From Somniosus microcephalus (Eukaryota), in NCBI GenBank assembly GCA_052327205.1, contig CM126204.1:352842001-352906000 (forward strand): a stretch of 64,000 nucleotides of DNA, read 5' to 3'. A program made the translations under genes and the position numbers. Below the pieces are notes generated by a model, which searched no databases, was not told the DNA's origin, and saw only the letters and a program-made list of their open reading frames with translations. Below are positions 26,387 through 63,721 of the stretch, one piece after another (position 1 is the first letter of the stretch; every line of letters starts with the position of its first letter).

Positions 26387-26849
26387 TAGTCACAAGGGTA
26401 GTCACTTGGGTGAAATGTGTTTATTTTAAAAATGCCATCAGTTGGTTATTGTAAATAAAATTTCTGATGGCAACTTCTGCATTTGTGGCATGTGTCATTT
26501 TGCGAATAGGGCTGGAGGTCCTCTAATGTCCAGATGGGAAGGAAATAAATGGCTCCCATGCTTCTGGTAGATCCCTCAGTTGAGGAAGCGCTGAGTGAGG
26601 GTGGCGAGAGGGGTCTCGCAGGAGGTCACACTGGAGATGGGTGTCAGGCTCCAAACTTCCACAGCTGTGGTTATGCTTTCTAAAAGTTCTCCCAGACCTG
26701 AGACAACAAAGTCCTGCCATCTGCAAATGATGACTGATCAAATATCCTTTTTAATGTTGGACCTGCAGCTGATAGTCAGCAAGCCAATAGTCTTCACGCC
26801 AGGTTTCACAGGCGTCATCCCCACCAGGTGCGTTTTATGTGGGACAGCT

Positions 26850-29800
26850 TGAAGGATGAGTGTGAGCTACAGCCCACCTCATGCAGACTGACCAGCTATG
26901 GGGGTGAGCAGCTCATTGTAAAAGGCACATGCGTGATGAAATGGAAGTACAAAGAAAGTGACATGATGTTGGACTTTTACGTTGTTGACACTCGAGCACC
27001 TCCAGTGCTAGGTCTAAAGGCATGCTTAGACATGGACCTCGTCAAGCTAGTGCTATCATTGACAGCACCAGTTGAGAAGCAGACAGTCATGGAGGAGTTT
27101 GCTGACGTTTTCAAAGGAATCGGACTATTCCCAGGTGAATGCACTATTCACCTTGACCCAGCAGCAACCCCTGTGGATTGCCCACCAAGAAGGATACCTC
27201 TTGCTCTACATAGTCACCTGAAGGAGGAGCTGCAGAGCATGGAGAATACAGAAATCATCATCCAGGAAACAGAACCGACAGAGTGGGTCAACGCGTTAGT
27301 AGTGGTTGAGAAACCACATACAGGCAAGCTCAGAGTCTGTCTCGACCCCAGAGATTTGAACAAGGCTATCAAACGCCCTCACTACCCTCTACCAATGCTA
27401 GATGACATCACACCCAAGCTAGTGGGAGCATGTTACTTCAGTGTAATGGACGCACGATCAGGATACTGGACTATCAAGCTCACGGAAGAGTCATCTAAGC
27501 TAACAATGTTCAACACACCATTTGGACGCTACCGAGTTCTGCGTTTACCATTTGGTCTTATCTCAGCTCAGGATGAATTCCAGCGGAAGATCGATGAAAC
27601 CTATGAAGGCCTCGGCGGAGTAGTCATAATCGTAGACAACATCCTCATCTATGGCAGGAATAGAGCGGAACATGACAGGAACCTCCGTGCGATGCTACAA
27701 AGATCACGGGAGAAAGGTATCCGGCTCAAGCCCGAGAAAAGCATAATCGGATCCACCGAGATCAGTTATTTCAGGCATCACCTCTCAACTGATGGCATTA
27801 AGCCGGATCCAGAGAAAATCTCCGCCATCAAGAAGATGGAGCCACCGAAGAACCGCGCAGAGCTAGAGACAGTACTAGGCATGGTTAACTACTTAGCCAA
27901 GTTTGCCCCGAGCCTCTCCGAAATCAACGCACCCATGCGTCAGTTGCTCAAACAATCCAATGAGTTCCTGTGGGACAAACAACATGACACAGCATTTCAG
28001 AAAATGAAAGACCTAATCACCAGAGAACCAGGACCAGTTCTTGCCTACTTCGACCCCAACAAAGAGCTCAGACTACAAGTGGACGCGTCAAAGTACGGAC
28101 TAGGTGCAGTATTACTGCAAGAAGGAAAGCCGATCGGCTACGCTTCCAGATCTCTCACAGACAGTGAAATCAACTATGCTTAAATCGAGAAAGAGCTATA
28201 TGCAATTCTGTTTGGATGTAAGCGTTTCCACCAGTACGTCTATGGCTGACAAGTCATTGTGGAATCCGACCACAAGCCCCTCGAGTCAATCATGAGGAAA
28301 CCACTAGCCGCAGCCGAACCAAGGCTACAGAGAATGATCCTTCAGCTACAGAAGTACGACTTCACAATCATTCACCGTCCAGGCAAAGACATTCCTGTCG
28401 CAGACACGCTCTCCAGAAAGTCTCTTAGCTACCAGGACAGCAGCCTCAGTGAAGGCATGGATGTGCAGGTGCACATGGTGTACAACAGCTTACCTGTGAG
28501 TGACTCAAAACTGAAGGAGATCCGAGCAGGAACAGAGAAAGATGCACAACTCACACTGCTGAGCAAAGTCATACATGAAGGGTGGCCTGAGGAAAGGAGG
28601 AAATGCCCTCAGAGCATATCTGAATTCTGGAACCACAGAGACGAACTGTCACAAATCAACAAAATCGTCTTCAAAGGGGAGAAAATCATCATTCCTACCA
28701 GTCTCAGAGAAGAGATGTTGACAAAAATTCATGCTGGACATATGGGCATGGAAAAATGCAAACAAAGAGCACATGACATTATGTTTTGGCTCGGAATCTG
28801 CAAACACATTGAGGACATTGTCGGAAAATGTTCCATTTGTCTAGAACGCCGCCCATCAAATGTCAAAGAGCCCATGATACCTCACCGTATCCCAGACAGG
28901 CCCTGGCAGGTCGCGGCAACGGATCTGTTCACATGGAACAACGAGGACTACATAGTGACTGTTGATTACTACAGCAGATTTTTTGAACTGGACAAGCTTC
29001 ACAGCACCACATCTGCAGCTGTGATCCACAAGCTAAAGGCAGCCTTTGCCAGGCATGGCATGGTAGAGACTTTAGTCTCAGACAATGGCCCCCAATACAA
29101 ATCAAAAGAGTTTGAGTCATTTGCCAAGGCATGGGATTTCACACATGTCACATCAAGCCCACATTACCCTCAAAGTAATGGCCTTGCTGAAAAAACTGTC
29201 CAGATTGCAAAAACACTCATGGACAAAGCCAAAGCGGACAAAAGAGACCCCTACATCAGTCTCCTTGAGTACCGCAACACTCCGGTTGACAACTTCAAGT
29301 CGCCAGCACAGCTGTTGATGAGCCGCAGACTTCACTCAAACCTTCCAAGCACCAACCAGCAGCTGCAGCCAGTGGTCATCAGCTGCAAGCAAGTGCATGC
29401 AAAACATGTACAGAGACAGCAACACCAAAAGAGATACTATGACAGGTCAGCTAGACTACTGCCGCCGCTGCACAATGGAGAATCTGTCAGAATCCAGGAG
29501 CATGACTACTGGAAGCCAGCAGTCGTCATCCAGCCAGCTGACACTGAGCGATCGTATCACGTCCGCACCCCAGAAGGACAGGTGTACCGCCACAATCGCA
29601 GGCACCTCCTGAACACCAAGGAACAACACCGTCATTCCGATGAGAGGATCAGTTCAACAGAGTGTGATGAACAGAGCAATACACAAAACACATCATACTT
29701 ACCTGAACCTAAACCTGAACCTGAATTGTTGACCGATTCAGGAGCATGCTCAGTTCCATACCACACAAAGTCGGGACAAGAGGTCAAGCCTAGAGTTATC

Positions 29801-30274
29801 CTTGACTTGTGAACTGTCAAAGGGTGTAGGCGGATCGCTGCCCTAAAAAAAAACTGTACATCGTTATTGAAACGTTGAGATGTTTTCAGTGCTAGTTAAA
29901 TGCTGAGTTTACTTATATGTTTATGCTACCGAGAACATTATGTACAAGAAAGGTTTAAAAGTAATGCATAACATTTTTCTTTTAAAAGAAAGGGGATGTA
30001 ACAGTTGCATATTGAATTATCATTGGCCCACAGGCATCTGTAAGGAATATCGATTATATTCACATGTGATCACATGCTGAGTTGTCATTGGCCTGCAGGC
30101 ATCTGTAAGGACTACTATTGTTTTGAAGACCCAGGCTAGGGGTCCTAATGCCAGGCTTTTCCCCACGGTGCTGTATGAGTAAGATCAGACCTAATGCTTA
30201 TTAAAAGAGTTAAACTGTAATACTCCGTTGTCCTGCAAGTTATTATTTTTGTACGAAGTGTGCAAAACAAGACA
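26850..30274 (+). mobile_element. 5'-truncated Gypsy/Ty3 LTR retrotransposon (element E: PR-RT-RNase H-IN, PPT, 3' LTR ~29997-30274)
   Basis: ORFs 26828..28183 (LRVCLDPRDLN, RLPFG, VDASKYGLGAVL) and 28259..29812 (HHCC, VDYYS, SDNGPQ, SNGLAE); PPT aaaagaaagggga then tgtaac; no 5' LTR or gag. Confidence 0.88.
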
Positions 30275-35842: not shown

Positions 35843-38800
35843 TGTTGAGTCTGAGTGTCCCAGATATGCTTATTCTAAATCACTGGACACAGACAACAAG
35901 AATAACTTAAACAGGTCTTTACTAATCGAAGGTCACGGCTGAACTGCTTAGCAAATTACTACACAGAGTTTATATACCGGTGTGGTCACCACCGGTACTA
36001 CAATATACAGTAGCCAAGAGAAAGTAGTCCATCTCTTAAGGTAGTCTCTTAAGGTGGTACAGGTTACATACACCATAATTCCTCCCTTTTTAGCTTAACA
36101 GTGTACATCCCAATTTAAACATAACATGGATAACATATATACAACTTCATGCAAAACTGTTCAAAGATTCAGTCTCTGAGGAGGCCTCCTGATCCGAGTT
36201 GGATAACGCCTTTCAGGGGTCTCTGATTCTCATTGCTGGGGTGACTCATCTAGTTGATCTCTTATGGGTTGGACATCATCAGATACATTGGCGTCTGAGG
36301 TAGATGCTTCAGGTTCACTAACTTCTTCCACTGGTGTCTCTGTCGTAGTCATGGGTTCGACCCTTGTTCTCGATTCTATAAGTTGGTCAGCATGACGTCG
36401 TATTACGTTTTCACCAATATCTACCGTGTACATCAGGGGTCCCTGTCTGGCACGAATTGTTCCAGATTGCCATTTCTCATTCTTATAGTCCCGGGCTAAC
36501 ACTGGTTGTCCTATTTCGAAACTCCGAGTGGTCTTGTTATTTATATGCTGGAACTGTTTGTTTTCGACTTCCCTCCGCACATTTGGTTTTAACAAGTCCA
36601 ACCTGGACCGCAACCTCCTGTTATAGAACATCATGGCAGGGCTTTGATTTGTCACTGCATGAGTGGCGTTTCGATATGCCATTAGGAAATTGTCCACCTT
36701 GTGTTGTAGTGGAATCTGGTCTTCGCTCATGGCCTTTATCGCCTTTTTGAACGTTTGTACAAATCTCTCGGCCAACCCATTTGTAGCCGGATGATATGGG
36801 GCAGAGGTATAATGTTTCACCCCATTCTTCTTCATGAATTTCTGGAATTCTTCTGACATGAACTGCGGTCCATTGTATGAACATATTTGTTCTGGCAATC
36901 CATTTCTTGCGAATATCGTTCTTAGAACTGCGATCGTCTTTTCCGAGGTAGTGGTCGCCATCTTAATCACTTCTGGCCATTTAGAATGTGCGTCTACCGC
37001 AATTAAAAACATGGAGTCCATGAATGGACCTGCGAAGTCAATATGTACATGTTGCCATGGGGTTGAAGGCCATTCCCATGGATGCAGCGGTGCAATTGGA
37101 GGTGCATTTTGAACTTTTTGGCACCCTGAGCAGCTTTTAGTCAGATCCTCTATTTGTTGGTCGATACCTGGCCACCACACATAAGCCCTAGCAAGGCTTT
37201 TCATCTTGACTCCCCCCAGATGACCTTCATGCAGTTCCTTTAGAACTCTCTCTCTTAATTTAGGAGGAATAATCACCCTTGTTCCATACATCAATGTTCC
37301 TTGACAGACGGACAGCTGTTCTCGCCTGGCTGAGAATGCCGGTAACAGTGGTTCACCATGAGCTGGCCATCCCTTCACTGTCAATTCGTAGACCCAAGAC
37401 AGTGTCGGGTCGTTCCTGGTTTCTCTCTCAATACTTGCATTGGTGACTGGTAAACATTCGATGATGGTCAAGTGAAATAACTCAACAGAGTCAACTGTCG
37501 GTGCCTCTTCCGCTGTAGGTAGTGGCAGGCGCGACAGCCCATCAGCATTACCATGTTGCTTTGTACCTTTGAATTCGATATGATATTGATGTGCCCCTAG
37601 GAAAAGAGACCATCTCTGGAGCCTCTGCGCTGTCATCACCGAAACACCCTTCTTAGGGTTAAAAATGGAAACCAACGGCTGGTGGTCTGTCAGCAGCGTA
37701 AACTTTTGCCCTTGCAGGTAATGATTAAATTTTTTTACTCCCCACACAAGGCTGAGAGCCTCCCTATCTATCTGAGCATAGTTGCGCTCAGCGGAGGTCA
37801 ATGATCTGGATGCGAATGCGACTGGTCTTTCCAAGCCATTTGGCAACTTATGTGAGAGCACTGCCCCACTACCATATGGAGAAGCATCACAAGCTAAACG
37901 AATAGGCAGCGTTGGGTTAAAGTGAGCCAACACTTCCTTAGAGGTGATCAATGCCTTGCTTTTGTGAAAGGCCCGCTTACAGTCCTCGCTCCACTTCCAT
38001 GGCACTCCCTTCTGCAAAAGAACGTTCAGCGGGTGTAGCACCGTGGATAAATTTGGCAGAAACTTATGGTAATAGTTAATAACCCTAGGAACGACCTCAA
38101 CTGGGATACATTTTCCGGAGCGGGAGCCTTCACAACAGCTTCGATCTTGTCAGGTGACTTGTGAAGCCCCTCCTGGTCAATGACGTGACCACAGTACGAG
38201 ATTTGCTTCTGAAAGAACTCACATTTCTGGCGATTAACTCGAAGTCCATATTCTTTCAATCTGGTGAGCACCTGTTCCAAATTTGCAAGGTGTTCCTCAT
38301 CATCATCTCCTGTAATCAGAATGTCGTCCAGGTAGCATTGTGTGCCTGGAATTCCCTGTAATACCTGCTCCATGGCCCTTTGCCAAATCGCTGGAGCCGA
38401 TGCCACTCCAAAAACTAGTCTATTATACCGATATAAGCCCTTATGCGTGTTGATCGTGAGATACTGGCGTGACGCTTCATCAACTTCCATCTGTAAGTGC
38501 GCCTGCGCCAGGTCTATCTTGGTGAAGTGTTTCCCGCCAGACAACGAAGCAAAGATATCCTCAATCCGTGGAAGCGGATATTGCACCGTGTGAAGCACCG
38601 GATTAACAGTGATCTTGAAATCGCCACAGATGCGAACCTTCCCCGGTTCCCCCGGCTTGTTACTCGATGAACGCTTCATGACGGGAACAATGGGCGTGGC
38701 CCATTCACTCCAGTCCACCTTTGACAGTACTCCGGAACGTTCTAGTCCTTCCAGCTCAGCTTCCACAGCAGGTCGTATCGCATAAGGTACCGGTCTAGCT

Positions 38801-41008
38801 TTGAAAAATTTTGGGTTTGCATGTTCTTCAACCTTGATGTTTGCCGTAATTCCTTTCAGTGTTCCCAGTCCCTGCTGGAACACCTCTTTAGCATCGTCCA
38901 ATATTCTGGACAGTCGTTTAGGTTTGACATCGTCCTTTTTACCGGAATCTACAGTTAGTGCTTTTAAGGAATGCCAGTCCATATTTATTCTCCTGATCCA
39001 TTCCCGTCCCAGTAGTGGTGGACCTCCCTCAGGTAACACATATAAGTCCATTCCTCGGCTTTCTTTACCCTTGTGGACCACCTTTACCTTTATCTTTCCA
39101 ATGGGGTATACTCTTTGCCCCGTGTATGTTTTCAATACAATCTCCGTATCCCTTAGGGGAATGTGTGGAAATAACCTTTTGTAATCTTGCTTATTCATGA
39201 CCGTCAATGCCGATCCAGTGTCCAATTCCATCTTCACTTGGACTCCTGCTATCTGAAGTGTGACCCAGATAGTTTGGTGGTCTGCTGTGTTACCCACATT
39301 ATGTATTCTTAGACAACCCAGTTCCTTACTGCTGGAGTCTGAATCCATCTTCTGTTCATCCGAACTGTTCTCTGTCACCTTGTTGCACTTTTCCTGCAGT
39401 GACTTTTTGTTGCTGGTCTTCTTTCCTGACCGGCATACTTTATCTATGTGACCGAGCTTGCCACATTTTCTGCATTCCTGATTTTTGAACCAGCACTGGT
39501 TCTGATCGTGCGTTGTCCTTCCGCAACGATAACACTTTACTGCACCCAATGCCATTTGATTGGTGCTGAGTTCCGATGACCTTAGCTGCATTTCCGCGGT
39601 GCCTCTTGCCGCGGCCTCGTGCGATGCTGCAATGGTGACAGCTTTATCAAGCGTAAGGTCCTTTTCCTCTAGCAGTCGCTTTTGTGTTCCTTCTTTTAAT
39701 AATCCACACACGAATTTATCTCTCAGAGCATCTGCTAGTCCTGTACCAAACTGACAGTACTTTGATAGCTTGCGCAGTTCAATTAAGAATTCAGCGTTGC
39801 TTTCCTCTTTCCGCTGCGTTCTTCTGTAAAATTTAAATCGTTCCGCTATCAGCAGCGGCGTGGGGTTTAAATCTTCTTGCAGGATATTAACAATATTCGC
39901 GAAAGTCTGATCCGCCGGTTTATCTGGTGTTACAAGGTGCCTCAATAACCCGTACGTCTTTGCACCCATTGAGTTTAATAAGGTTAGTGCTTTCTTATCA
40001 TCTGGTACCTCATTTGCTGTACAATAAACTTCAATGCGTTCTACATACGTGGCCCAATCTTCAACATCGCTATCAAAAGCAGTGATGTTACCGTGTTTAG
40101 GCATCCTTGAGAGTTTCTTTAAATATTTTATTTTTCCAAAATGGCGGCTTCCCGCGCTTGTCTTCTTCCCCCGCCTACTACAATGGCGGCTTCCCGCGCT
40201 TGTCTTCTTCCCCCGCTGGCTACAATGGCGATGACCACGCTGTTGCCGTTCTCGCCTCCCAGCGGTTCTTAATTTCCCCGACGCTGCTTTTGCTCCCCCG
40301 CGGTTCTTGTGGGCATTAACGCTTCCCTCGTTGCTGCGCCTCTCAGCCCCGATTGCAGCCCGGCCCTTTTCACCAGCTGTGGTCGAGTTCTCCGTGGTTC
40401 TCGTGGCATTAACGCTGCCCTTGTTGCTGCGCCTCTCGGCCCCGATTGCAGCCCGGCCCTTTTCACCGGCTGCGGTCGAGTTCTCCGCCCTTTTTCCTCC
40501 GGTTTCCCTCCCCTTCTCCACTGACAACACGGCCGACTTTCTGCCCGTGTCGCTAGATCGGCTTACCCACCACCGTGGTAGAAGGATGATCACTGCCTGT
40601 CGCTGATGGAGGACTTCGTGGTCAGTAATTTCAACCTGGGTTCTCGATGCCTCCCGTGCGATGCAGTGCTCAGCAGGATGATGAGGGCGGATGCCTCTTC
40701 TCGATGCCCGTTCTGAGGACGAAGCTGCCTTGGATGCAAAACTGCCGCAGGGTAAGATCGGACTCGTCGCCACTGTTGAGTCTGAGTGTCCCAGATATGC
40801 TTATTCTAAATCACTGGACACAGACAACAAGAATAACTTAAACAGGTCTTTACTAATCGAAGGTCAGGGCTGAACTGCTTAGCAAATTACTACACAGAGT
40901 TTATATACCGGTGTGGTCACCACCGGTACTACAATATACAGTAGCCAAGAGAAAGTAGTCCATCTCTTAAGGTAGTCTCTTAAGGTGGTACAGGTGACAT
41001 ACACCACA
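35843..41008 (-). mobile_element. Full-length Gypsy/Ty3 LTR retrotransposon (element A)
   Basis: 235-bp LTRs 35843-36077 and 40774-41008 (3 mismatches by eye); TSD gttct; PBS TGGCGACGAG (tRNA-Ser-like); PPT aaaagggaggaat. Confidence 0.95.
36165..40104 (-). pseudogene. gag-pol of element A (Gag, 2 zinc knuckles, PR, RT, RNase H, IN); one frameshift near 38050 and a late stop at 36230
   Basis: MPKHGN..., [59 protein letters not shown]. Confidence 0.92.
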
Positions 41009-41859
41009 GTTCTGGGAGGGAGGGGCAGGGGTGAGGGCAGACGTGCGGGAGATAGAACTGACACGGTCAACCATGGTAGAGGGGAATCCTTGGTTGAGGA
41101 AAAAGGAAGACATGTCGGAAGCACTGGTATGGAAGGTGGCATCATCAGAGCAGATGCGGCGGAGACGGAGAAACTGGGAGAATGGAATAGAGTCCTTACA
41201 GGAGGCGGGGTGGGAGGAAGTGTAGTCCAGGTAGCTGTGGGAGTCAGTGGGCTTGTACTGAATGTTGGTCAATAACCTATCCCCAGAGATGGAGACGGAG
41301 AAGTCGAGGAAGGAAGGGAAGAGCCGGAGATGGACCATGTGAAGATGAGGGAAGGGTGGAAATTGGAAGCAAAGTGAATTAAATTCTCTTAACTTCTCCT
41401 GCCTTCTATCCTATCACAGACCTTCCCTTTTGTTCTTTTATCCCCTCCCCCATTTCCCAGCCCCTACACTTGCTTAAAAATCTGTTCCATTTCCTGCTTT
41501 TTTCCAGTTCTGACAAAAGGTCATCGACCTGAAACGTTAACTCTGTTTCCCTCTTCACAGAGGCTGCCTGACTTGCTGAGTATCTCCAGCATTTTCTGAT
41601 CCTATCTCTGTCCTGGCTCCAACCAAAGCAACTCCCACTCTTTATGAGCAGTTATACTGCCAATGCCCTGTGAAGTTGATGGGAATGCTGGGAATGCTTG
41701 GTCTGCCGTAGCATTGCAATGACATAATAATTTGTCTTAATCGTGCAATTTAGACCTTTGGAGAGTTTGAAATTTATAGACAGGGAAGATAGGGGAAAGC
41801 GTGGACTATTCGCTAAACTTCCAGCTGTTCCAGGGTTTCAATTACATTTACAACTATAG

Positions 41860-47314: not shown

Positions 47315-50300
47315 TGTAAAGTCTGTGGGTTATATGGTGAATTAATACACAGACTACAAGAGTAACTTTAACAGGACTTTACTATTCGAAGGTCAGGGCG
47401 AATCTGCCCAATAAATCCTTACACAGCACTTATATACCGGTGTGGTCACCACCGGTATTACAGTATACAGCAGCCAAGATAAAGTAGTGCAACACCTAAA
47501 ATAGTTCTCTTAAAGGTGGATGGTTACATACAATAGTTCTCTTAAAGGTAGAACGGTTACATACACTACAATCCTCCCTTTTTAGCTTACAACATACTTA
47601 TTCCCCATTAAACATAACATCATAACATCTATCCAACTTCATTTAAAAACAGTTCACAGATGTAGTCTCTGCGGAAAACAGTTCACAGATGTAGTCTCTG
47701 CGGAAAACAGTTCACAGATTCAGTCTCTGCGGAAAACAGTTCACAGATTCAGTCTCTGTGGAGGCGCCTCCTGTGCTTCTTGACTCGGTCCGGACAATGC
47801 CTCGGTGGTGTAGCAGTTTCCTGTGGTATAGTCGGTTCACGTTGCTGGAGTGACTCATCCAATAGTCCTTCACTGGACTTAACAGCTTGAACTTCCGTCA
47901 CTTCTGAACCAGCATTGTTGACTTCTAAAAGCTTGAGTACCTTGGGAAGTTTTTCTACTTCCAAACTGATTTGGCTCCGTTCGGAGGGACCACGTGCGTG
48001 ATCTGGTAGAGGTGATAATGGTTCAGATGGGACATCTTCTTCTGTTTCGTCTTTTCCTTTCCTGCTTCTTGGAGACTCTCTGTGCTCCGCTGCCAGCCGC
48101 ATGCACAGTTCCTCCTCCTCTTTCTCCTGTTGCCTTAGCAGTGCCACTATCTCCCGGTGTTTCTTAGACTTTTTGTGATTCTTCAGGGTTTGTGCACTTC
48201 GGAAGATTTCCCCACAAGCTGGGCAGAACAGGTCCTCGTTATATTCGGTGTCGTTCAACAGGACATGGTAATAATCGGTGTCGTCCTGAGCTAGGCCAGC
48301 GAGAGGGTCTTTTATTTCCTCCATGCCCAGCTGGACGTTAGCCAGCTTTTGTTCCAAGTCCCGACATCTCTCCTGAAGAGACTTCTTCATGTGTTCAGCT
48401 TCCTCCAGCTTTTTCTGGGCTTCCTGCAAGTCTTTTATTAATGACCTCATTCGTGATTTCAATGCTTCAACTTCCTTCGGAGATTGATTGATCGTACTAT
48501 TCAATCCCTCTACTGGAGCAGCTGTTTCAGCATTTTGTTGTTCGACATTGACGTGAGTCAGCGTACGTTTGGCATCCAAGGGTTGCTCTGCTGCCATCTT
48601 CTCAGTCTGTGTTGCAACCTCAGCTATTTCAATAACTTTTGAGAGCTCCGAACCCCTTTCCTTTGAAGATTGAAGCTCGTGTTCAAATTGTTCCCATTTC
48701 AGAGTCTTGTCCCTCAGCATATGAAGGAGTTGGCTGACCGTTAACTCTTCTGACCTCATCCATTTCCCAGTAGCTGCAGGGCTGTTTATAACCTTGCCCT
48801 GGGGCTCCTTTGCTGTTTCTACTTCGCCATCATCCGCAGCCTCCACCATTCGAATTTCCACAAATGAATCGTCCGGTGGTGCTGCACCCAACTTCAGTAG
48901 GAGCTCGGAATTCATGGCGACCAACTCAGCCTTTTCTGCCTGCAATCTGCTAACAAGCGCCTTCAGTTGCTGAACATCTTGCTCCACCAGATTAGAGCAC
49001 GCACCTTCAGAAACCGAATCAGCTTTGATTCGTTTGGCCTCCTTGCGCAGACGGTTTGTGTGCTCCTGCTCCCTTTTCTCCCTCAGCTGTTTCTGTTGTC
49101 TTTCCAGATTCTCCCACTCTGTGTCAAAGAACGTTTTCATTGCTTTTATCTCTTGCTCGAGACGGCAACTCAATTGTTCTAATTGCTGTTGTAATTTGAA
49201 ATGGAGTTGAGTTCGAGCCCGGTGTTCCTCAGACTTGTGCATGTCTGTAAACTGGACAGACTCAGAATTCTCTGCCAAACTATGTTGTTGTTGTTCAGTG
49301 GAATTCTGTTCTGAAACTTTGTTCTCCTTTGAAGCATCAGTATTTATGCACTCCTTCGTTTTTCCAACCTTAGTCAGCAAGTCCATTTTAGACTTGTCTT
49401 TCGCACCTGGGCTGGTCTTGTCGTCATCCGTTTCAGAGTCTGAGCTGATTGTCTTCACCGAGTTCTCACTCGTTATTGCTTTTAGGTAGTGCCATTCCAT
49501 ATTTATTTCCCTGATCCACTCCCGTCCCAGAAGTGGTGGACCTCCCTCAGGTAGTACATATAAGTCCATTCCTTGGTGTTCTTTGCCCCTGTCTCTCACC
49601 TTGACTTGTATCTTTCCCATGGGGTATACTTTATGCCCCGTGTATGTCTGCAATACGATCTTGGTATCTCTCAAGGGTATATGTGAGAATAGCCGGTTGT
49701 AATCCCTTCGATTTATGACTGATAGGGCTGATCCTGTGTCCAATTCCATTTTCACTTGGACTCCGGCTACTTTTAGTGTGACCCAGATAGTTTGTAGGTT
49801 AGCTTCCTTACTCACATTGTGAATTCTCAGACTACCCAGTTCCTGGCCGTTCGGGTCTGAATGCGAATTCTGTTCATCTGAACTCTTCTCAGCCACCTTG
49901 TGTACCTTGCTGTCCTTTTCCTGAGGTGACTTTTTTCTGTTGTTGGTCTTCTTTCCTGACCGGCATACTTTAGCTATGTGACCAAGCTTGCCACATTTTC
50001 TACATTCCTGGTTTTTAAACCAGCATTGGTTCTGGTCGTGTGTTGTCTTCCCACAACGATAACATTTTGTTGTACCCGAAGTCATTTGATCCACGCTGAG
50101 TACCGCTGCCTTCAGCTGCATTTCCGCAGTGCCTCTCACGGCTGCTTCGTGTGATGCTGCAATAAGGACAGCCTTGTCAAGTGTAAGATCGTTCTCTTCG
50201 AGCAGTCGCTTTTGTGTTCCTTCCTTCGACAACCCGCACACGAACTTATCTCTCAATGCCTCTGTCAGATTTTCCCCAAACTGGCAGTATTTCGCTAGTC

Positions 50301-51887
50301 TACGCAGTTCGACCAAGTATTCCGCGTTGCTTTCCTCTTTCCGTTGCGTTCTCGCATAAAATTTGAATCATTCCGCCAACATCAGCGGTGTGGGGTTCAA
50401 ATGATCCTTCAGGACAGCAACAATATCAGCGAAAGTCTGATCCGCCGGTTTAGCTGGTGATAGAAGATGCTTCAATAGCCCGTATGTCTTCGCCCCCATT
50501 GCGTTTAATAAGGTGAGAGCTTTATCATCATCTGCTATTTTATTGGCCTCACAATATATCTCGATGCGTTCTACGTACGTGGCCCAATCTTCCACTTCGG
50601 AATCGAAGTTGTTGATGTTACCATGCTTAGGCATCTTCACTATCTTTTTGAGAAACCACAACGAATTTGTTCGTTACTTTTTTTTTCCAAAAATGGCGGT
50701 TTCCCGCGCTTCTGTCTTCTTCCCCCCTACTGGCGGCTTCCCGCATTTCTTCCCCTGGCGGGAGGGGTAAGCTTTCCTTCGGGCGACGACCGCTGGCTTT
50801 CGGAGTTCGCAGCCTGCGCGCCGGCTTCAGTGCGTTCCTTGTTCCCTTTTCTCGGCCGGCAACCGGCGCTGGGGACAACCCGTTGGCGGCGAACAGTTCC
50901 AGCCGCTGGGCGGAATCTCGCTCGGTCTCCCTCGCTCGGTCCCGTTCCCCCTTCACTCGGCTCTGTCTCTCCCTCAGCGGCTTCCAATCGCGCCTCCCAG
51001 CCCTCTCGCAGTCCGGTCCTTTCCTCCCCCGGCTGCGGCTGAGTTCTCCGCGGTTTTATTTATTTTTATATCTTCCCGCGCCTTACAATCCCGGTCGCAG
51101 CGCCTCGTGGCCTCGGTAGCTGCCCGGCCTTTTTCGCCGGTCGCGGTCTAGCTGTCTCACGACGCTGTTGCGTCTCCCAGCCCGCTTGTAGCCCGGTCTC
51201 TCACACCGGCTGCGTTCCCGCTTGTAGCCCGGTCTCTCACACCGGCTGCGTTCCCGCTTGTACCGCGGCTTCCGTGCCCTACGCTGCCCCAGTCTCAGCG
51301 CCTCTGGGCCCGACTTCTGTCCGGCTCCTTTCCCCCGACCGTGGTCGAGTTCACCGCCCTTATCCTCCGTTTCTTTTTATTTTCCCCCTACTCACAGTCA
51401 ACGTGGCCGACTTGCTTCTCTTGGCTGATCGGCTCACTCACCGCCGTGGCAGAAGGGACAATAACAGCCTGTTGCTGATGGAAGGCTTCGTGTCTGAATC
51501 CTTCCTTCTTCCTTGCTCTGCAGACTCGAGTCTTCTCTCAGCAGAACGACGAGGGCGGGTGCCTCTTCTCGACGCTCGTTAACTGCTTCAGGTGTGTCGC
51601 TGCCGCAGGGTAAGATCGAACCCGTCGCCACTGTAAAGTCTGTGGGTTATATGGTGAATTAATACACAGACTACAAGAGTAACTTTAACAGGACTTTACT
51701 ATTCGAAGGTCAGGGCGAATCTGCCCAATAAATCCTTACACAGCACTTATATACCGGTGTGGTCACCACCGGTATTACAGTATACAGCAGCCAAGATAAA
51801 GTAGTGCAACACCTAAAATAGTTCTCTTAAAGGTGGACGGTTACATACAATAGTTCTCTTAAAGGTAGAACGGTTACATACACTACA
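47315..51887 (-). mobile_element. Non-autonomous Gypsy LTR element B carrying host-gene-like cargo
   Basis: 256-bp LTRs 47315-47570 and 51632-51887 (1 mismatch by eye); TSD tgagg; PBS TGGCGACGGG; PPT aaaaagggaggat; no RT/IN motifs. Confidence 0.95.
47749..50634 (-). CDS. Chimeric Gag-protease-cargo polyprotein (STK10/SLK-like coiled coil + optineurin-like segment with LIR + DNAJC21-like zinc finger + integrase C-terminal tail); single CGA>TGA stop at 50368-50370
   Basis: ORFs 50368..50661 and 47749..50316 are in the same frame; Gag/PR homologous to element A; cargo motifs [88 protein letters not shown]. Confidence 0.85.
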
Positions 51888-52064
51888 TGAGGGACATGTT
51901 AAAGTGTTACACATATAGAACCCAAGAATCATACAGCACAGAAGAAGGCCATCCAAGTGGATAAGGCAAGCGCTGTGTCCAGACACTCAAACAGCTCCAT
52001 ATATTGAGCATGGTGCTCATTGCACAAGCCTATTCAGCCATGTGGTCCTAGATTACTCTCTCTG

Positions 52065-52248
52065 GGGGTCATTTTGACTTTGTGCAATAGTGTAAAACAG
52101 GTGATAGCGGCTCGCCAGCCCGTATTACATCTCTCTCGATTTTTATTTCCATTGAACTTAATCGAAATAAAACTCGTGAGAGCTGTTAGACGGGCTACCA
52201 ATTCACTATCACCTGTTTTGCCCTATCGCACAAAGTCAAAATGACTCC
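52065..52248. mobile_element. Small fold-back palindromic MITE
   Basis: gtcattttgactttgtgc..aaaacaggtgatag pairs with ctatcacctgtttt..gcacaaagtcaaaatgac; imperfect palindrome over ~185 bp. Confidence 0.75.
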
Positions 52249-52524
52249 CCCCCCCCACTCCCCATGTGCTTAGCTGGCCAGTTTCAATCTCACAGTTGAT
52301 TGCGTCTATCACAAATTTCGGAACAGAGTATACCAAAGTTGATGGAATGGATGCATCTACTATAAAAACATAGAATGGAATATGTTTTTTTAATTACAAA
52401 CCCAAAGAAATAACGCGGTAGAATCACAAATATGATCTAGTAGCTGATTAGCAAGGGAATATAAACACACAGGAGCGTTTCTGATTGGCATCATGAAATT
52501 GTATAGTGTGGCTGTCAGAAAAAG

Positions 52525-52940
52525 ACAAATCTTGCATTTATATGCTGCCTTTTACGTCCTCATGATGTCCCAACATGCGTTTCAGCCAATTAATTACTTT
52601 TGACAGTGTCGTCACTGTAGGTGTTTGGCAAATGCAGCAAATTGCTCACAGCAAAGTCCCACAAACAGGAAATGAGCTAAATGCCAATTTAAATTGTCTT
52701 GCTTGTGTTTCTTGAGGGATGAATGCAGGCCAGGTCACCGGGAGAACTCCCTACTCTTCTTTGAATAGTGCAAGGGGATCTTTTACGTCTAGGCAGATGG
52801 GCCCTTGGTTCAAAGTCTCATCCAACAGATGTCAGCTCTGACAATGTAGCACTCCCCCAGTACAGCAATCTGAAGAGGTAGTCTCACTTATGTCCTGGAC
52901 TGACTGGGGCTTGAGCTCAAGACCTTCTGGGAGTTCTGTG
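52525..52940 (-). mobile_element. Deu-SINE; its tRNA head continues at 57819-57845, split by element C
   Basis: Reverse complement matches the SINE core and tail; A-box (tgactcagttggtagca) lies just beyond the 3' LTR of C. Confidence 0.7.
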
Positions 52941-55900
52941 TGTAGTGTGTGTACCCGTCTACCTTTAAGAGAACTATTGTATGTAACCGTTCACCTTTAA
53001 GAGAATTATTTTAGGTGTGGCACTACTTTGTTTGGCTTCTGTATACTGTAATACCGACGGTGACCACACCAGTATATAAGTGTTGTGTCAGGAATTATTG
53101 GGCAGATTCGCCCTGACCTTCGAATAGTAAAGTCCTGTTTTAAGTTACTCTTGGAGTCTGTGTATTAATTAACTAAACAACCCACAGACTTTACAGTGGC
53201 GACGAGTCCGATCGTACCCTGTGGCAACAATACGTCCGAAGCAGTTAACGAGCGTCGAGAAGAGGCAACCGCCCTCGTCGTTCTGCTGGGAAAAAACTCG
53301 AGGCTGCAGAACTAGAAAGGAGGAAGAATTTAGAGACAAAGACTTCCATCAGCAACAGGCACTGACTGTCCCTTCTGCCACGGTGAGGAGTGAGCCGATC
53401 AGCACGAGAAGCAAGGCGGCCACGGTGACTGTGAGTAAGGGAAAGTAAAAAGAATAACCGGAGGATAAGGGCGGTGCACTCGACCACGGTCGAGGGGGAA
53501 AGGAGCCGGACAGAAGTCGGGCCCAGAGGCGCTGAGACTGGGGCAGCGTGGAGCAAGGAAGCCGCGGTACAGACAGGCTGGGGACGCAACGGCGTTGTGA
53601 GACAGCTAGACCGCGACCGGCGAAAAAGGCCGGGCAGCGACCGAAGCCACGAAGCGCTGCGACCGAGAGCGTAGGCGCGGGAAGATATAAAAACTCAGCC
53701 GCAGCCGGGGAGGGAAGCACCGGACTGCGAGAGGGCTGGGAGGCGCGATTGGGAGCCGAGTGAGCGGGAGAGGCAGAGCCGACCAAGGGAGACTGAGCGA
53801 GAGCCAGTCCAGCGGCTGAAACTGTTCGCCGTCAACGGGGTGTACCCAGCGCCGGTAGAGCCGAGCGAGCGGGAGAGAAACAGAGCCCGAGCAAGGGGAA
53901 CTGAGTGAGAGCCAGCCCAGCGGCTGAAACTGTTCGCCGTCAATGGGGTGTACCCAGCGCCGGTTGCCCTGCCGAGAAAAGGGAAAGCACTGAAGCCGAC
54001 GCGCAGGCTGTGAACCTGAAAGCCAGCGGCCGTCGCCCGTGGGGGAAGTGTACCCCTCCCGCCAGGGGAAGGAACGCGGGAAGCCGCCATTAGGCGGAGA
54101 AGAAGACAGAAGCGGGGAACCGCCATTGAAGTGGGCGGGGAGAGAAGATAAGCGCGGGAAACCGCCATTTTCGCGGGAACCGCCATCTTGGGAAAAGAAA
54201 AAAAAATTTTAAAGAAATAATTCGTGGTGTTATCAGGAAGAGAGGAAGATGCCTAAGCGTGGTAACATCAACAATTTTAATTCCGAGGTAGAAGACTGGG
54301 CCACGTATGTGGAACGCATTGAGATCTATTGTGAGGCCAATAAAATAGAAGAAGATGACAAAGCTATAACCTTGCTAAACTCGATGGGCGCGAAGACATG
54401 TGAGCTCTTGAAGCATCTACTAGCACCAGCTAAACCGGCGGATCAGACTTTCGATGATATTGTGACTGTTCTGAAGGATCACTTGAACCCCACACCGTTG
54501 ATGTTGGCGGAACGATTCAAATTCTATGCGAGAACGCAAAGGAACGATGAAAGCAACGCAGAATACTTGGTCGAACTGCGTAGACTAGCGAAACACTGCC
54601 AGTTTGGAGGGAATCTGACAGAGGCATTGCGAGACAAGTTCGTGTGCGGATTGGCAAAGGAAGGAACGCAAAAGCGACTACTCGAAGAGAACGACCTTAC
54701 ACTTGACAGGGCTGTCCTTATTGCAGCATCGCACGAAGCCGCAGCGAAGGGAACTGCGGAAATGCAGCTAAAGACAGCGGCACTCAGTGTGGATCAAATT
54801 ACCTCGACAACAACAAAATGCTATCGTTGTGGGAAGACAACACACGACCAGAACCAATGCTGGTTTAAGAACCAGGAATGTAGGAAATGTGGCAAACTGG
54901 GTCACATAGCTAAGGTATGCCGGTCAGGGAAGAAGACCAACAACCAAAGGACCAACAACCAAAGGAAGCCATCACAGGAAAAGTACAACAAGGTACACAA
55001 GGTGGCTGAGAAGAGTTCAGACGAACAGAATTCGGACTCAGACCCAAACGGCCAGGAGCTGGGTAGTCTGAGAATTCACAATGTGAGTAAGGAAGCTGAC
55101 CTACAAACTATCTGGGTCATGCTAAAAATAGCTGGAGTCCAAGTGAAAATGGAGTTGGACACTGGATCAGCTCTATCAGTCATAAATCGAAGGGATTACC
55201 ACCAGCTATTCTCACATATACCCTTAAGGGATACCAAGTTCGTATTGCAGACATACACGGGGCATAAAGTATGCCCCATGGGAAAGATAAGAGTCAAGGT
55301 GAGAGATAGGGGTAAAGAACACCCAAGAATGAACTTATACGTACTACCTGAGGGAGGACCACCACTTCTAGGATGGGAGTGGATCAAGAAAATAGACATG
55401 GAATGGCCCTATCTAAAAGCCATAACGAGTGAGGACTCGGTGCAGACAATCAGCTCAGATTCTGAATCGGATGACGATAAGACCAACCCAAATGTGAAAG
55501 ACAAGGCTAAAATGGACTTGCCGACTAAGGTTGGAAAAACGAAGGCATGCCGAAAGGCTTATGCTTCAGAGAAGAACAAAGTTTCAGAACAGAGCTCCAC
55601 CGAACAACGACAACATAGTTTGACAGAGAATTCTGAGTCTGTTCAGTTTAAGGACATATCCATGACGGAAGAACACCGAGCTCAGACTCAACTTTATTTC
55701 AAATCACGACAACAATTAGAACAATTGAGTTACCGTCTCGTACAAGAGATGAAAACAATGAAAAAGTTCTATGACACCGAATGGGAGAATCTGGAAAGAC
55801 AACAGAAGCAGCTAGCTCAAGCAGAGAGCGACCATAGAGCCATCGTGACCAATCACCGATCACATCTCCCTTATGATGTTCAGGAGTTAGAATATTTACA

Positions 55901-57818
55901 GAAAGAAGCAAATGAAGAGGAATCTTCAGGAAGCCAGGATTTTATTCCAGTTCTTCTCTACGACTCCTTACAAGCAGAGTTTGAGAAGTTGAAGGAACAG
56001 GCCCAGGCTACAATCCTGGAGGGGGTTAACTCAGCAACCTCCGAAAAGCTAGTTTCAGTGGAAGCATATGAGCAACTAAAGGTTGAACATGAACAAGAAG
56101 TCCAAAGGCTGCAGGAAATTCTTAATGAGCTCAAGGCCAAGACAGACTCATCGGTAGAAGTTCCATCCATAGATGAGAAATTAGAGGTGAAAGACATGGC
56201 AGAACATGAAAGTCAAGATGTCCAAGAACTCATAAAAATATTGAAGGAAACCCAAGACAAATATGAGGCGGCAATGACCGAGGTTCAACAACTTGAAGAA
56301 CAGATTCAACTGGGAATTCTTTCAGTGAAAGAAAAGGCAACTGTAAGAAACACAGAGACTGTAAGAATGGCCCCTGAACATGAGCTAGAGAGCATCAAGG
56401 CGCAACTTCTCCGAGCGCTTAAAGCCAAAGTACAAGAGGAAAAAAAGGTGAAAGCATTGGAGGAAAAGGTGGATGAAATAGAGAAGACTCTGATCCACAG
56501 GGTCCCCGTGGAAGAGTTAACGGTCAGCCAACTCCTTCATATGCTGAGAGACAAGACTCTGCAAGGGGAACCATTTGAACACGAGCTTCAATCTTCAAAG
56601 GGAAGGGGTTCGGAGCTCTCAAAAGTTTGGGGAATAGTTGAGGTTGCAACACAGATTTTACGGGGCTGCCGAAAGTACGCTGAATCACGTCAATGGGAAC
56701 TACAGAATGTTGAAACAGCTGCTCCAATAGAAGGATTGAATAGCCCGATCAATCAATCCCCGATGGAAGGGGAAGTATTGGAATCACAAATGAGGTCATT
56801 AGTGAAGGACTGGCAGGAAACCCAGGAAGAGCGGGATGAATATGAACGCATGAAGAAGTCTCTTCAGGAAAGATGTCTAGGGAGGGAACAACAGTCAGCT
56901 AACGTCCAGTTGGGTAAGGAAGAAGTAGCAGGCCCTCTCGCTAGACTAGCTCAAGACGACACCGAATATTACCATGACCTGTTGAGTGACACGGAATATT
57001 ACGAGGACTTGGTCTGCCCAGCTTGTGATGAAAACTCCCAAAGTGCAGAAATCAGGATGAAGCACTTAAAGTCTAAGGAACATAGGGAGATGGTGGCGCT
57101 ACAGCTGGCAGCTGATAAGGGAGCCCCGAGAGTCTCCAAGAAGCAGAAAAGAAAAAGACGAAGCAGAAGACGATAACCATCTAAATCATTATCACTTCTA
57201 TCAGATCATGCACGTGGGCCCTATGAAGGAGGCCAAATCAGTTGGAAAGTAGGAAAAATTACCAAGGCAGTCCAGCTGTTTGTAAAAGTCAGCACTGCTG
57301 GTTCAGCAGGACGGAAGTTCAAGCTGTTAAGCCAAGGGAAAGACTATTGGATGAGTCACGCTAGAAATGTGAACCGGCTACACCACAGAGATGTTGTTCG
57401 GACCGAGTTAAGACCAGAGACTGAATCTGTGAACTGTTCCCGCAGAGACTGAATCTGTGAACTGTTTCCCGCAGAGACTATATCTGTGAATTGTTTTACA
57501 TGAAGTTGATTATATGTTATGTTTAATGGGGAATAAGTATGTTGTAAGCTAAAAAGGGAGGATTGTAGTGTATGTACCCGTCTACCTTTAAGAGAACTAT
57601 TGTATGTAACCGTTCACCTTTAAGAGAATTATTTTAGGTGTGGCACTACTTTGTTTGGCTTCTGTATACTGTAATACCGACAGTGACCACACCAGTATAT
57701 AAGTGTTGTGTCAGGAATTATTGGGCAGATTCGCCCTGACCTTCGAATAGTAAAGTCCTGTTTTAAGTTACTCTTGGAGTCTGTGTATTAATTAACTAAA
57801 CAACCCACAGACTTTACA
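52941..57818 (+). mobile_element. Non-autonomous Gypsy LTR element C carrying host-gene-like cargo
   Basis: 255-bp LTRs 52941-53195 and 57564-57818 (2 mismatches by eye); TSD ctgtg/ctatg; PBS TGGCGACGAG at 53197; PPT aaaaagggaggat; no RT/IN motifs. Confidence 0.95.
54249..57176 (+). CDS. Intact 975-aa chimeric Gag-protease-cargo polyprotein (STK10/SLK-like + ANKRD24/RAI14-like + optineurin-like + DNAJC21-like segments)
   Basis: Uninterrupted ORF; Gag, 2 CCHC knuckles, LDTGS protease, then [73 protein letters not shown]-x12-H-x5-H. Confidence 0.88.
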   Translation: MPKRGNINNFNSEVEDWATYVERIEIYCEANKIEEDDKAITLLNSMGAKTCELLKHLLAPAKPADQTFDDIVTVLKDHLNPTPLMLAERFKFYARTQRNDESNAEYLVELRRLAKHCQFGGNLTEALRDKFVCGLAKEGTQKRLLEENDLTLDRAVLIAASHEAAAKGTAEMQLKTAALSVDQITSTTTKCYRCGKTTHDQNQCWFKNQECRKCGKLGHIAKVCRSGKKTNNQRTNNQRKPSQEKYNKVHKVAEKSSDEQNSDSDPNGQELGSLRIHNVSKEADLQTIWVMLKIAGVQVKMELDTGSALSVINRRDYHQLFSHIPLRDTKFVLQTYTGHKVCPMGKIRVKVRDRGKEHPRMNLYVLPEGGPPLLGWEWIKKIDMEWPYLKAITSEDSVQTISSDSESDDDKTNPNVKDKAKMDLPTKVGKTKACRKAYASEKNKVSEQSSTEQRQHSLTENSESVQFKDISMTEEHRAQTQLYFKSRQQLEQLSYRLVQEMKTMKKFYDTEWENLERQQKQLAQAESDHRAIVTNHRSHLPYDVQELEYLQKEANEEESSGSQDFIPVLLYDSLQAEFEKLKEQAQATILEGVNSATSEKLVSVEAYEQLKVEHEQEVQRLQEILNELKAKTDSSVEVPSIDEKLEVKDMAEHESQDVQELIKILKETQDKYEAAMTEVQQLEEQIQLGILSVKEKATVRNTETVRMAPEHELESIKAQLLRALKAKVQEEKKVKALEEKVDEIEKTLIHRVPVEELTVSQLLHMLRDKTLQGEPFEHELQSSKGRGSELSKVWGIVEVATQILRGCRKYAESRQWELQNVETAAPIEGLNSPINQSPMEGEVLESQMRSLVKDWQETQEERDEYERMKKSLQERCLGREQQSANVQLGKEEVAGPLARLAQDDTEYYHDLLSDTEYYEDLVCPACDENSQSAEIRMKHLKSKEHREMVALQLAADKGAPRVSKKQKRKRRSRRR

Positions 57819-61639: not shown

Positions 61640-63721
61640 AGTAGTGTATGTACCTTTAAGACAGAACTACTTTTACAGCTCCTGTATACTGTAGTACCGG
61701 CAGTGACCACACCTGTATATAAGCCTTGCGCATGCCTCTGTACCCCCAGTCTTGAGACTACCCTCCACCAGTAAATACCTGTTGATTGTTAAGTTACAGC
61801 ATCCGTGTGGTTATTGAAAAACATCATACTCTCAGAATCACGGATCTAACAGTGGCGATGAGTGTCAATTCGAATCTACCTGCAACTCTGCATTTCCCTT
61901 CGAGGAGTCACTCCGGGAGGGCGGTGGAAGCAAGTCGAGGCCAGAAACACGTGCGTCGACCACGAGCAACCGCCCAGTCGTCCGGCAGAGAGTGAACATC
62001 GCAGGGGAGGCTGTGGAGAGCCGGGCTTGGTTCCCCAGCCACGACGATCAGCAAGAGACTGACGACAGGTACAGCGCAGATCCTTCCCGGACAGCGGTGG
62101 CTGGAGCCGACCGACGGCAGAGAGAAAGCCGAGCAGCGTCGACGGGGTAAGACAGAGGGTGAAGCGCACAGGGCGCAGCCGGGGGTTGAAAACCGAGCAG
62201 CGTCGAGAGAAAAAAAAAATGGAGAGAGAGAGGGTAAAGCAACAGCCGGGTTCAGGACCGAGCGGCGGGAACGGGAAAGGCACACAAAAAAAAGAACGCG
62301 CAGAGCACATCCAGGGCTCAAGGGCTGAACGGTGTCCGCGGGGAGAAGAAGGGAGAGCGCGGGAGATGCCATTGAGCTGCGGAGAAGAAGGAAGAGCGCG
62401 GGAGATGCCATTTTTAGAAGCCGCAGCGGAGAAGAAGGGCGAGCGCGGGAAGGAAGGGGAAGCGCGGGAGATGCCATTTTTGACAGTTAAATCACACCCA
62501 GGGATGCCGAAGAGTGGCAGTATCTCTACGTTCGACAATGAAGTCGAAGATTGGGCAACATATGTGGAACGTATTGAGGTGTACTGCAGGGCGAATGAAG
62601 TGCCAGATGCTAGGAAAGCACTGGTTTTGTTAAATTCCATGGGTGCAAAAACTTTTGGGTTACTGCGGAACCTAATAACCCCAGAGAAGCCAGTGAACAA
62701 GAATTTCGAAAGCATAGTAGAAATCCTACAGGACCACTTAAACGCCATACCGCTGCTGATAGCAGAACGATTTAAGTTCCATAAAAGGAACCAACACAAA
62801 GACGAAAGCAATGCTGAGTACCTAACGGAACTACGCAAGCTATCGAAACACTGCCAGTTTGGAGCGGGACTAGCAGATACGTTAAGGGGCAAGTTTGTGT
62901 ATGGGCTGCAAAGTGAAGGAACCCAGAAACGGCTTCTATCAGAAAGGGATCTTACGCTGGACAAGGCTTTCAGTATGGCAGTATCACACGAAGCAGCCGC
63001 AAGGGGCGCTGCAGAGATACAACGGAGACCGCAAGAATATGGCACCAATTAAATGTCCTATGGAACAGGGAAGTGCTATCGCTGCGACAGAACAACACAT
63101 GACCAGAAGGATTGTTGGTTCAAGGACCAAGTGTGCAGACTGTGTGGAAAAGCAGGACACATAGCAAGAGTCTGCAGGTCTGGGAAGAAAACCAACAGTA
63201 AGAAATCTCCACAGGAGAAGTACAAAAAGGTACACAAGGTGATGGACAGTAGTTCAGATGAACAGAAAAGTGACGCAGACTCCGGAAACAAGGTTGTCTG
63301 AAACTACATAAGGTAACCAAAATGGAGGATCACCAGACTATCTGGGTTACACTCAAGATAGACGGAGTCCAAGTGAAAATGGAATTGGACACAGGATCAG
63401 CCCTAACAGTCATAAACCAAAGGGACTACAAGCGGCTATTTTCACATATACCCTTGAAAGCTACAGAGATTGAATATTAGGGGTACTACTAATCTAAAAG
63501 GGGAGGAATTGTAGTGTATGTACCTTTAAGACAGAACTACTTTTACAGCTCCTGTATACTGTAGTACCGGCAGTGACCACACCTGTATATAAGCCTTGCG
63601 CATGCCTCTGTACCCCCAGTCTTGAGACTACCCTCCACCAGTAAATACCTGTTGATTGTTAAGTTACAGCATCCGTGTGGTTATTGAAAAACATCATACT
63701 CTCAGAATCACGGATCTAACA
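61640..63721 (+). mobile_element. Gag-only non-autonomous Gypsy LTR element D
   Basis: 212-bp LTRs 61640-61851 and 63510-63721 (differ only at the first base by eye); TSD ccaag; PBS TGGCGATGAG; PPT aaaaggggaggaat. Confidence 0.93.
62504..63480 (+). pseudogene. gag plus truncated protease of element D
   Basis: MPKSGSISTFD..., stop at 63050, two CCHC knuckles, frameshift near 63300, ELDTGS, then truncation just before the PPT. Confidence 0.85.

Follow-up and report, generated by a model that had tools for sequence, protein, structure and literature searches.

Acutely transforming retroviruses are defective, helper-dependent viruses in which template switching has joined gag to spliced host sequence, yielding gag-onc fusions. 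Comparable events are known among long terminal repeat (LTR) retrotransposons. Tan et al. (2016, PMC5131818) described LTR-mediated retroposition of host genes in fly, mosquito, zebrafish, chicken and mammals; its products, often in frame, include multi-gene chimeras such as a mouse locus with four genes; the vertebrate cases amount to a few per species, and the word 'circular' does not occur in the available part of that paper. The maize LTR element Bs1 has a chimeric open reading frame put together from segments of three host genes (PMC5131818, PMC13317346), and the accessible text of the latter review does not use the term 'circRNA'. Circular RNAs (circRNAs) have likewise given rise to pseudogenes, exemplified by mouse circRFWD2 with 33 high-confidence copies, through a mechanism that the accessible text calls 'mysterious' (Dong et al. 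2016, PMC4897178). Neither gene capture by LTR elements nor the circRNA pseudogene is, in other words, new. In sharks, the available part of a preprint (10.1101/2024.09.09.611499) reports intronless OPTN copies with long interspersed nuclear elements (LINEs) or LTRs within 1 kb, and single-exon copies of RAD51 (exons 2-5), PLEKHA1, LRAT and WAPAL near LINEs or LTRs. Here, we describe a family of Ty3/Gypsy elements in a 64,000-nucleotide stretch of the shark Somniosus microcephalus (assembly GCA_052327205.1, contig CM126204.1, forward-strand positions 352,842,001 to 352,906,000; hereafter the window, to which positions refer) in which the genes for reverse transcriptase (RT), RNase H and integrase (IN) have been exchanged for spliced host exons, and in which at least two of the donors, STK10 and ANKRD24, were most likely circular RNAs.

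The window, part of a 6.45-billion-base assembly (G000), holds one parent-type element and two derivatives. Element A (35843..41012, minus strand) encodes gag-PR-RT-RNaseH-IN, PR being the protease, in two overlapping frames; its Pfam domain order PR-RT-RNaseH-IN without env identifies it as a Ty3/Gypsy retrotransposon, its 239-nt LTRs are 98.3% identical, and the pattern of its PR/RT boundary has 16,118 genomic matches. Element B (47315..51887, minus strand for all its features) is of the OPTN type, with the layout Gag-PR+STK10+OPTN+DNAJC21+STK10+IN tail, and element C (52941..57818, plus strand throughout) belongs to the ANKRD24 type. B has a 256-nt 5′ LTR with TG...CA ends (51632..51887), a primer-binding site TGGCGACG (51621..51631), presumably of tRNA-Ser type, and a purine tract with the 3′ LTR (47315..47584, LTR 47315-47570); its LTRs agree at 255 of 256 positions and the target-site duplication (TSD) CCTCA stands on either side. 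The 5′ LTR of C (52941-53195) is followed by the primer site (together 52941..53206) and the purine tract precedes the 3′ LTR (57550..57818, LTR 57564-57818), the 255-nt LTRs being identical at 253 of 255 positions and the TSD, CTGTG/CTATG, having one mismatch. Both elements share TGGCGACG and the purine tract AAAAAGGGAGGA, and in both Pfam detects a Gag zinc knuckle and an aspartic protease (gag with zinc knuckles plus protease, 49472..50634 in B; gag plus protease, 54249..55426 in C). Pfam finds no RT, RNase H or integrase in B or C, while A carries all three. DNA homology to A ceases directly past the protease, at 49472 in B and 55426 in C, and returns near the 3′ end. Genome-wide, all 40 scored matches of B are full length at 99-100% identity and all 40 scored matches of C lie at 96-100%. 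Young and non-autonomous, the Ty3/Gypsy elements B and C have kept their cis signals, have lost RT and IN and exist as many dispersed copies, with RT-RNaseH-IN exchanged for spliced host exons in frame with Gag-protease.

Homolog searches identified four donors in this cargo, namely ANKRD24/ankycorbin (E 2.5e-83), optineurin (OPTN, E 2.9e-83), STK10 (E 1.7e-56) and DNAJC21 (E 1.5e-13, the sole match among 16 candidates), and it is in sharks that the captured proteins have their closest homologs. A genome search with shark STK10 recovered residues ~376-704 in all 47 scored candidates, followed in 46 by a match from residue 290, and 20 of 20 founder loci consist of Gypsy gag-protease, STK10 386-704, STK10 290-388, the native integrase tail and the LTR. 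The host gene was located through its uncaptured kinase part, whose exons match a sawshark protein at 89-96%, and 30 kb of it on G000:C8 were compared. In a founder copy (L019), five host exons can be recognised at 98.7-100% identity, arranged as b(3′)-c-d-e-a-b(5′): the donor of exon e is joined to the acceptor of exon a, and the copy begins and ends at one point inside b. All exon joins fall at an AG acceptor and a GT or GC donor, the exon lengths (135, 675, 131, 124 and 180) total 1,245, and the captured length is likewise 1,245, a multiple of 3. The back-splice is visible in 20 of 20 founder loci, and a pattern laid over it has 1,138 genomic matches compared with 0 for the reversed control. 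The parent carries TATTGGAYGA after the protease and GATGAG in the integrase tail, both sites being present in element A, and the host exon carries TATTGGATGAG at the point where the circle opens. The founder STK10 is therefore best read, from these junctions, as most likely a single lap around a back-spliced circle with entry and exit at the same microhomology. One intron within the STK10 circle uses a GC donor (G000:C8:167193683, L053). Some copies have ~955 nt between the left junction and the back-splice; in many others (G000:C1, C2) the figure is ~535 nt, and an internally deleted founder form is common.

In C, the ANKRD24 segment begins within the final ~12 nt of one late exon, traverses an entire 66-nt exon to its GT donor (55806..55883, aa ~1055-1080; host exon G000:C13:62873348-62873413) and resumes with the opening base of the large ANKRD24 exon (55884..56517, aa ~492-705, 95% to host). 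The junction at 55883..55884 thereby joins a late-exon donor to an acceptor 11.5 kb upstream and is exact at both splice sites; its pattern has 3,876 genomic matches and the reversed control none. Because exact back-splice junctions are present, the STK10 and ANKRD24 templates were most likely circular RNAs, and the scrambled exon order of the cargo would follow from the circularity of some donors. A C-type copy (L056/L058, G000:C13:62867071-62871961, LTRs 98.4%, TSD CTCAC) lies antisense in the ANKRD24 intron that separates the two late exons represented in its cargo.

Loose read ends at 55897 and 55901 pointed to a sister subfamily with an extra insert (1,231 matches). From the two ends of this insert a native exon end can be predicted, and it occurs once in the genome, within a fifth donor gene (G000:C3:347968125-348013505, on the contig of the window and ~4.8 Mb away; pieces in L063-L066). 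Starting from TTGC in that last exon, the insert reaches the exon's donor, passes into an exon ending 45 kb upstream and then through later exons (90-99%), and halts at the same TTGC. The splice-donor side is exact and the exon order inverted; a polypyrimidine-acceptor pattern matched two sites, neither in the gene. The fifth donor is a putative further one-turn capture. Two atlas searches gave it no name, returning generic coiled-coil clusters with low recognition. We assume that it resembles EVI5. Each of two copies examined (L063 and L064) has a frameshift inside the insert.

OPTN is linear: in L060 it comprises seven exons spliced in host order, starting 9 nt into one exon and ending in the last ~15 nt of another, and no back-splice junction, the mark of a circRNA-derived retrocopy, was found in the L060 exon alignment. 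Host DNAJC21 lies on G000:C1. OPTN sequence past residue 383 stands in long open frames at 15 loci outside the host gene (on C1, C2, C4, C5, C6, C9, C11, C14, C20, C22 and C33; L059 and L060 were sampled).

Strict local alignment resolves the B cargo into STK10 400-478 and 616-686 (49019..49471, 90% to host exons), OPTN 131-383 (48314..49027, spliced over six host exons in linear order), the C2H2 zinc finger of DNAJC21 at ~312-384 (48053..48313) and STK10 323-388 (47854..48052), followed by the native integrase tail, in frame through the stop (47749..47853). The two leading STK10 pieces appear to be what an internal deletion has left of the 5′ half of the circle; the trailing piece, the far end of that circle, is placed last, although in the host gene it precedes the first piece. 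Reads from both RNA runs leave out 231 nt of the B OPTN piece (48753-48985), a length divisible by 3; the ends are not splice-like, and the skip probably reflects another deletion subfamily. C reads as STK10 400-478 and 616-663 (55427..55813, ~81% to host exons), ANKRD24 1054-1080 fused out of order to 491-705, OPTN 231-383 (56511..56925, 3′ limit approximate), which shares a GAAGAGT microhomology with ANKRD24, and DNAJC21 with the stop (56926..57176, limits approximate), where a degenerate zinc finger, scoring just E 0.04-0.08 in Pfam, precedes RVSKKQKR. A decaying STK10 far-end piece (57156..57355, 76-85%) falls mostly past that stop. B retains the OPTN motif DSFVEI, which we take to be of the LC3-binding type, and C has lost it.

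Much of this bears out a preliminary description of the stretch made from the sequence alone. It had credited B and C with all cis signals for retrotransposition, with a Gag-PR homologous to that of A up to a divergence after the protease, and with a polyprotein assembled from several donor genes resembling STK10, optineurin, ANKRD24 and DNAJC21; the signals are in place apart from one mismatch in the TSD of C, and all four donors were named correctly. The exon-junction check that it proposed came out in its favour, as the STK10, OPTN and ANKRD24 pieces span host exon-exon junctions and contain no intron sequence. Two of its statements hold in part. The cargo is indeed open, but B as a whole is not, since its gag has a stop codon at 50368-50370 that is private to this copy (0 of 7 siblings covering the site); and the return to the native pol tail is in frame in B but not in C, where a 975-codon frame (54249-57176) starts at gag and stops after the DNAJC21 piece.

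Counted by junction patterns, the family has 9,300 genomic matches at the 3′ junction common to its subfamilies; founder-type (1,138), OPTN-type (4,017) and ANKRD24-type (3,876) matches add up to 9,031, and the original left junction is retained in 1,090. Because the patterns tolerated 1-2 mismatches, all these counts are approximate, and matches are not necessarily full-length copies. Same-direction pairs of family copies ~4.3-4.4 kb apart (G000:C13:56041152/56045451; C1:10172328/10176722) are possibly tandem elements sharing an LTR. Intermediates exist as well: L059 and L060 carry the deleted STK10 circle and OPTN without DNAJC21. Identity to host declines with the age of capture, both between copies (STK10 at 99.1% in the founder, 97% in L059/L060, 90.5% in B and 81% in C) and within L064 (STK10 77%, OPTN 86%, the large ANKRD24 exon 96%, the fifth donor 97%). 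This fits the capture order STK10, OPTN, DNAJC21, ANKRD24, fifth donor, an order that would rest on intermediates and divergence and not on a tree, with DNAJC21 placed by presence and absence alone. Each of the six switch points for which both donors were aligned has a microhomology of 4-10 nt, and the STK10, OPTN, ANKRD24 and fifth-donor pieces combine spliced host sequence and microsimilarity at the switch points with no poly(A) and no L1 TSD. The serial transduction by template switching that had been proposed for B and C is thereby supported; the designation of the cargo as mRNA fragments is wrong for at least two donors, as STK10 and ANKRD24 carry exact back-splice junctions, and the pieces are not in mRNA order.

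A single non-autonomous Gypsy lineage would, in our model, repeatedly capture host RNA within the particle, with co-packaged circular RNAs as prominent donors. The first step can be read from the sequence: RT departed from the Gypsy RNA near the integrase tail, switched to the five-exon STK10 circle at the common GATGAG, copied a full turn, regained the same letters and landed on the second site, TATTGGAYGA, just past the protease, so that RT-RNaseH-IN was exchanged for the STK10 circle in frame. Exactly one turn would be made because RNase H destroys the circle behind RT, leaving the template exhausted after one lap, at which point the microhomology again forms the new 3′ end. Internal deletion, capture of OPTN, capture of DNAJC21 (B type) and capture of the ANKRD24 circle (C type) would have come next, with the fifth donor entering the ANKRD24 piece last, again as a single turn. 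The elements would supply their own Gag-protease and borrow RT and integrase in trans from the abundant parent family. The most likely reason for the open frame is that a premature stop would destabilise the RNA or disrupt cis-acting particle assembly, and the cargo would then serve as an open-frame spacer and not as a working host domain.

Selection has acted differently on Gag-protease and cargo. Gag-protease is under purifying selection, with ratios of non-synonymous to synonymous change (dN/dS) of 0.16-0.21 in 6 of 6 pairs and 46 residue changes versus 79.4 expected in a shuffle test that preserves the observed substitution types. In the same test, the B cargo shows 65 residue changes versus 69.8 expected (P 0.16). 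Cargo stops, counted over the 442 (B) and 465 (C) codons aligned to host exons, DNAJC21 excluded, number 0 versus 3.1 expected in B (P 0.037) and 0 versus 5.2 in C (P 0.004). Among 9 B and 7 C siblings, changes confined to a single copy are neutral, and 2 of 46 and 2 of 57 of them, respectively, are stops. With private changes neutral and stops purged in the lineage, the replicating lineage therefore holds the cargo frame open while its residues are nearly free to drift, and inserted copies decay afterwards. A Nei-Gojobori cargo dN/dS of ~0.5 was discarded, because transition bias lowers dN/dS, and is superseded by the spectrum-matched shuffle; a founder dN/dS of 0.13 was disregarded, the founder loci having been chosen by protein score.

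The family appears to be transcribed. RNA run X17, of which ~24% was read, gives a family-level signal at 96% likeness: depth over internal bins is 32-175 on one mate strand versus 2-23 on the other in B, and 52-297 versus 3-32 in C, with 0 reads in two wholly unique spacer bins. By the convention of most stranded libraries, the favoured strand is sense. Some ANKRD24 reads may derive from host mRNA. Contigs of organisms A and C also cover the cargo.

Taken together, the junctions, intermediates and divergence make circle capture by template switching very probable. A number of points nonetheless count against this account. The ANKRD24 capture covers part of one turn only and, as TTCAG is common to its exon end and the acceptor, a switch onto unspliced RNA could mimic the back-splice; two of the five donors, DNAJC21 and OPTN, which has no back-splice, may be ordinary mRNA; and a genomic STK10 duplication was looked for over just 7.7 kb downstream of exon e. 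The C cargo is mildly constrained (77 residue changes versus 88.5 expected, P 0.011), none of five single-donor tests is significant alone, and the stop tests of B and C are non-independent because the two have a common history. Run X18 is weakly stranded, X17 and X18 are both labelled as another sample's species (organism B), and plain RNA-seq is blind to a host circle because element transcripts bear the identical back-splice junction. Linear donors with scrambled exons, produced by tandem exon duplication in the host or by trans-splicing and captured by ordinary template switching, would yield the same junction from any RNA with exon e ahead of exon a; the host genes were partly covered, and other routes to non-colinear junctions are noted in the available text of PMC4897178. 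Such donors are nevertheless improbable, given that each STK10 exon is single-copy in the 30 kb of host sequence, that exon order is inverted in three unlinked genes, that the STK10 capture measures exactly one circumference with entry and exit at the same letters, and that the ends of the fifth donor likewise meet at the same letters. The abundance of LINEs in the window and the existence of mammalian circRNA pseudogenes (PMC4897178, as far as available) might suggest that L1/LINE-made processed pseudogenes, including circRNA pseudogenes, were inserted into Gypsy DNA and then amplified, but the cargo substitutes for pol and does not interrupt it, its junctions have neither poly(A) nor an insertion-site duplication, and donor-shared microhomology is found on both sides; this anatomy largely refutes a LINE origin, which we regard as very improbable. 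Misassembly, to which repeats are prone, has a close to negligible probability: each junction recurs at thousands of separate loci, a separate TSD flanks each of B, C and the L056/L058 copy, and contigs of two further runs as well as two RNA runs cover the cargo.

The cargo might alternatively have been selected for what its protein does, its coiled coils oligomerising Gag, recruiting helper Pol or affecting autophagy or innate signalling to the benefit of the element. The host reading frame is used in all pieces checked, most of the donor segments are coiled coils or zinc fingers, stops have been purged and C is mildly constrained, derived subfamilies exceed the founder by ~7 to 1, and DSFVEI persists in B. 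Residue change in B nevertheless stands at the neutral level, pieces have been deleted and overwritten repeatedly, and C has a weak zinc finger and no DSFVEI, all of which leaves this explanation rather unlikely. Circle capture into an open-frame spacer remains the preferred reading. A broader version, in which circular RNAs are the preferred substrate of this Gypsy particle and RNase H limits each copy to one lap, the lineage evolves by shuffling exons, its translated coiled-coil cargo is selected because it helps the defective element to out-compete or co-assemble with its helper, and other single-exon 'retrogenes' in such sharks are more circles captured in this way, is tentative and on the doubtful side.

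Elsewhere in the window, a second, unrelated Gypsy-like pol with RT-to-integrase motifs recognised by eye occupies 26738-29812 (plus strand, two frames), preceded by a 375-codon low-complexity frame (25259-26386). A small element with short LTR-related repeats at either end (61666-63593) contains a gag-like stretch (62540-63470) with 70% identity to B. A 20-nt satellite of ~120 or more units extends over 42925-~45600. LINE-type endonuclease/RT frames, which we take to be RTE-like and CR1-like, lie at 459-1328 and 3384-6251 (minus strand).

The family offers what is most likely a genomic record of circular RNA written back into DNA, and one of serial exon shuffling of five vertebrate genes inside a single transposon lineage; its ~9,300 copies would amount to roughly 40 Mb if full length. 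Since the elements preserve switch points, back-splice junctions and intermediates, they offer a concrete, testable model, with microhomology entry, one lap and exit at the same letters, for the route of circRNA reverse transcription that the available text of PMC4897178 leaves open. In these sharks, gene-duplication counts for STK10, OPTN, ANKRD24 and DNAJC21 will be inflated by the copies, which will also mimic back-splice reads in circRNA surveys. The chimeric Gag-cargo protein was absent from other species among 24 homologs and the best 120 of 170 listed, an absence that is weak because annotation masks repeats, and a 50%-representative library held just ANKRD24-like and optineurin relatives (11 matches).

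How, then, does the shark family compare with the systems described before? The open-access literature, the scope of our search as opposed to subscription journals and repeat databases, yielded no account of this family, nor of an LTR element that captures circRNAs in series; a self-amplifying lineage of this kind, with its mechanism legible at the junctions, was not found there. The preprint 10.1101/2024.09.09.611499 treats the OPTN copies as retrogenes, and its main text, where available, mentions neither 'STK10' nor 'circular'; the single-exon RAD51, PLEKHA1, LRAT and WAPAL copies are candidates for further captures. Gag joined to spliced host sequence by template switching recalls the acutely transforming retroviruses, but the shark elements lack env, are germline and have not taken kinase or other catalytic domains; the analogy to these viruses drawn in the preliminary description finds no functional support, as cargo residues drift close to neutrally. 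The description also knew of no such report for a vertebrate Gypsy family; LTR-mediated capture in vertebrates, multi-gene chimeras included, is already described in the accessible text of PMC5131818. As in those systems, host RNA replaces part of an internal ORF through a microsimilarity-guided double template switch and spreads non-autonomously; unlike them, as far as that text goes, the shark family has back-splice junctions, one-turn captures, ~9,300 copies, nested captures in a single lineage and a still conserved Gag-protease. Bs1 is similar as an LTR element with a multi-gene chimeric ORF and differs in being a plant element for which the available sources do not mention circular donors. 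The circRNA pseudogenes, as described in the accessible part of PMC4897178, share with the shark copies a back-splice in the genomic copy, the lack of poly(A) and an enrichment of LTR sequence in the flanks; unlike those pseudogenes, the shark copies lie inside complete LTR elements, in frame with Gag-protease, with legible switch points and what are most likely at least two donor circles.

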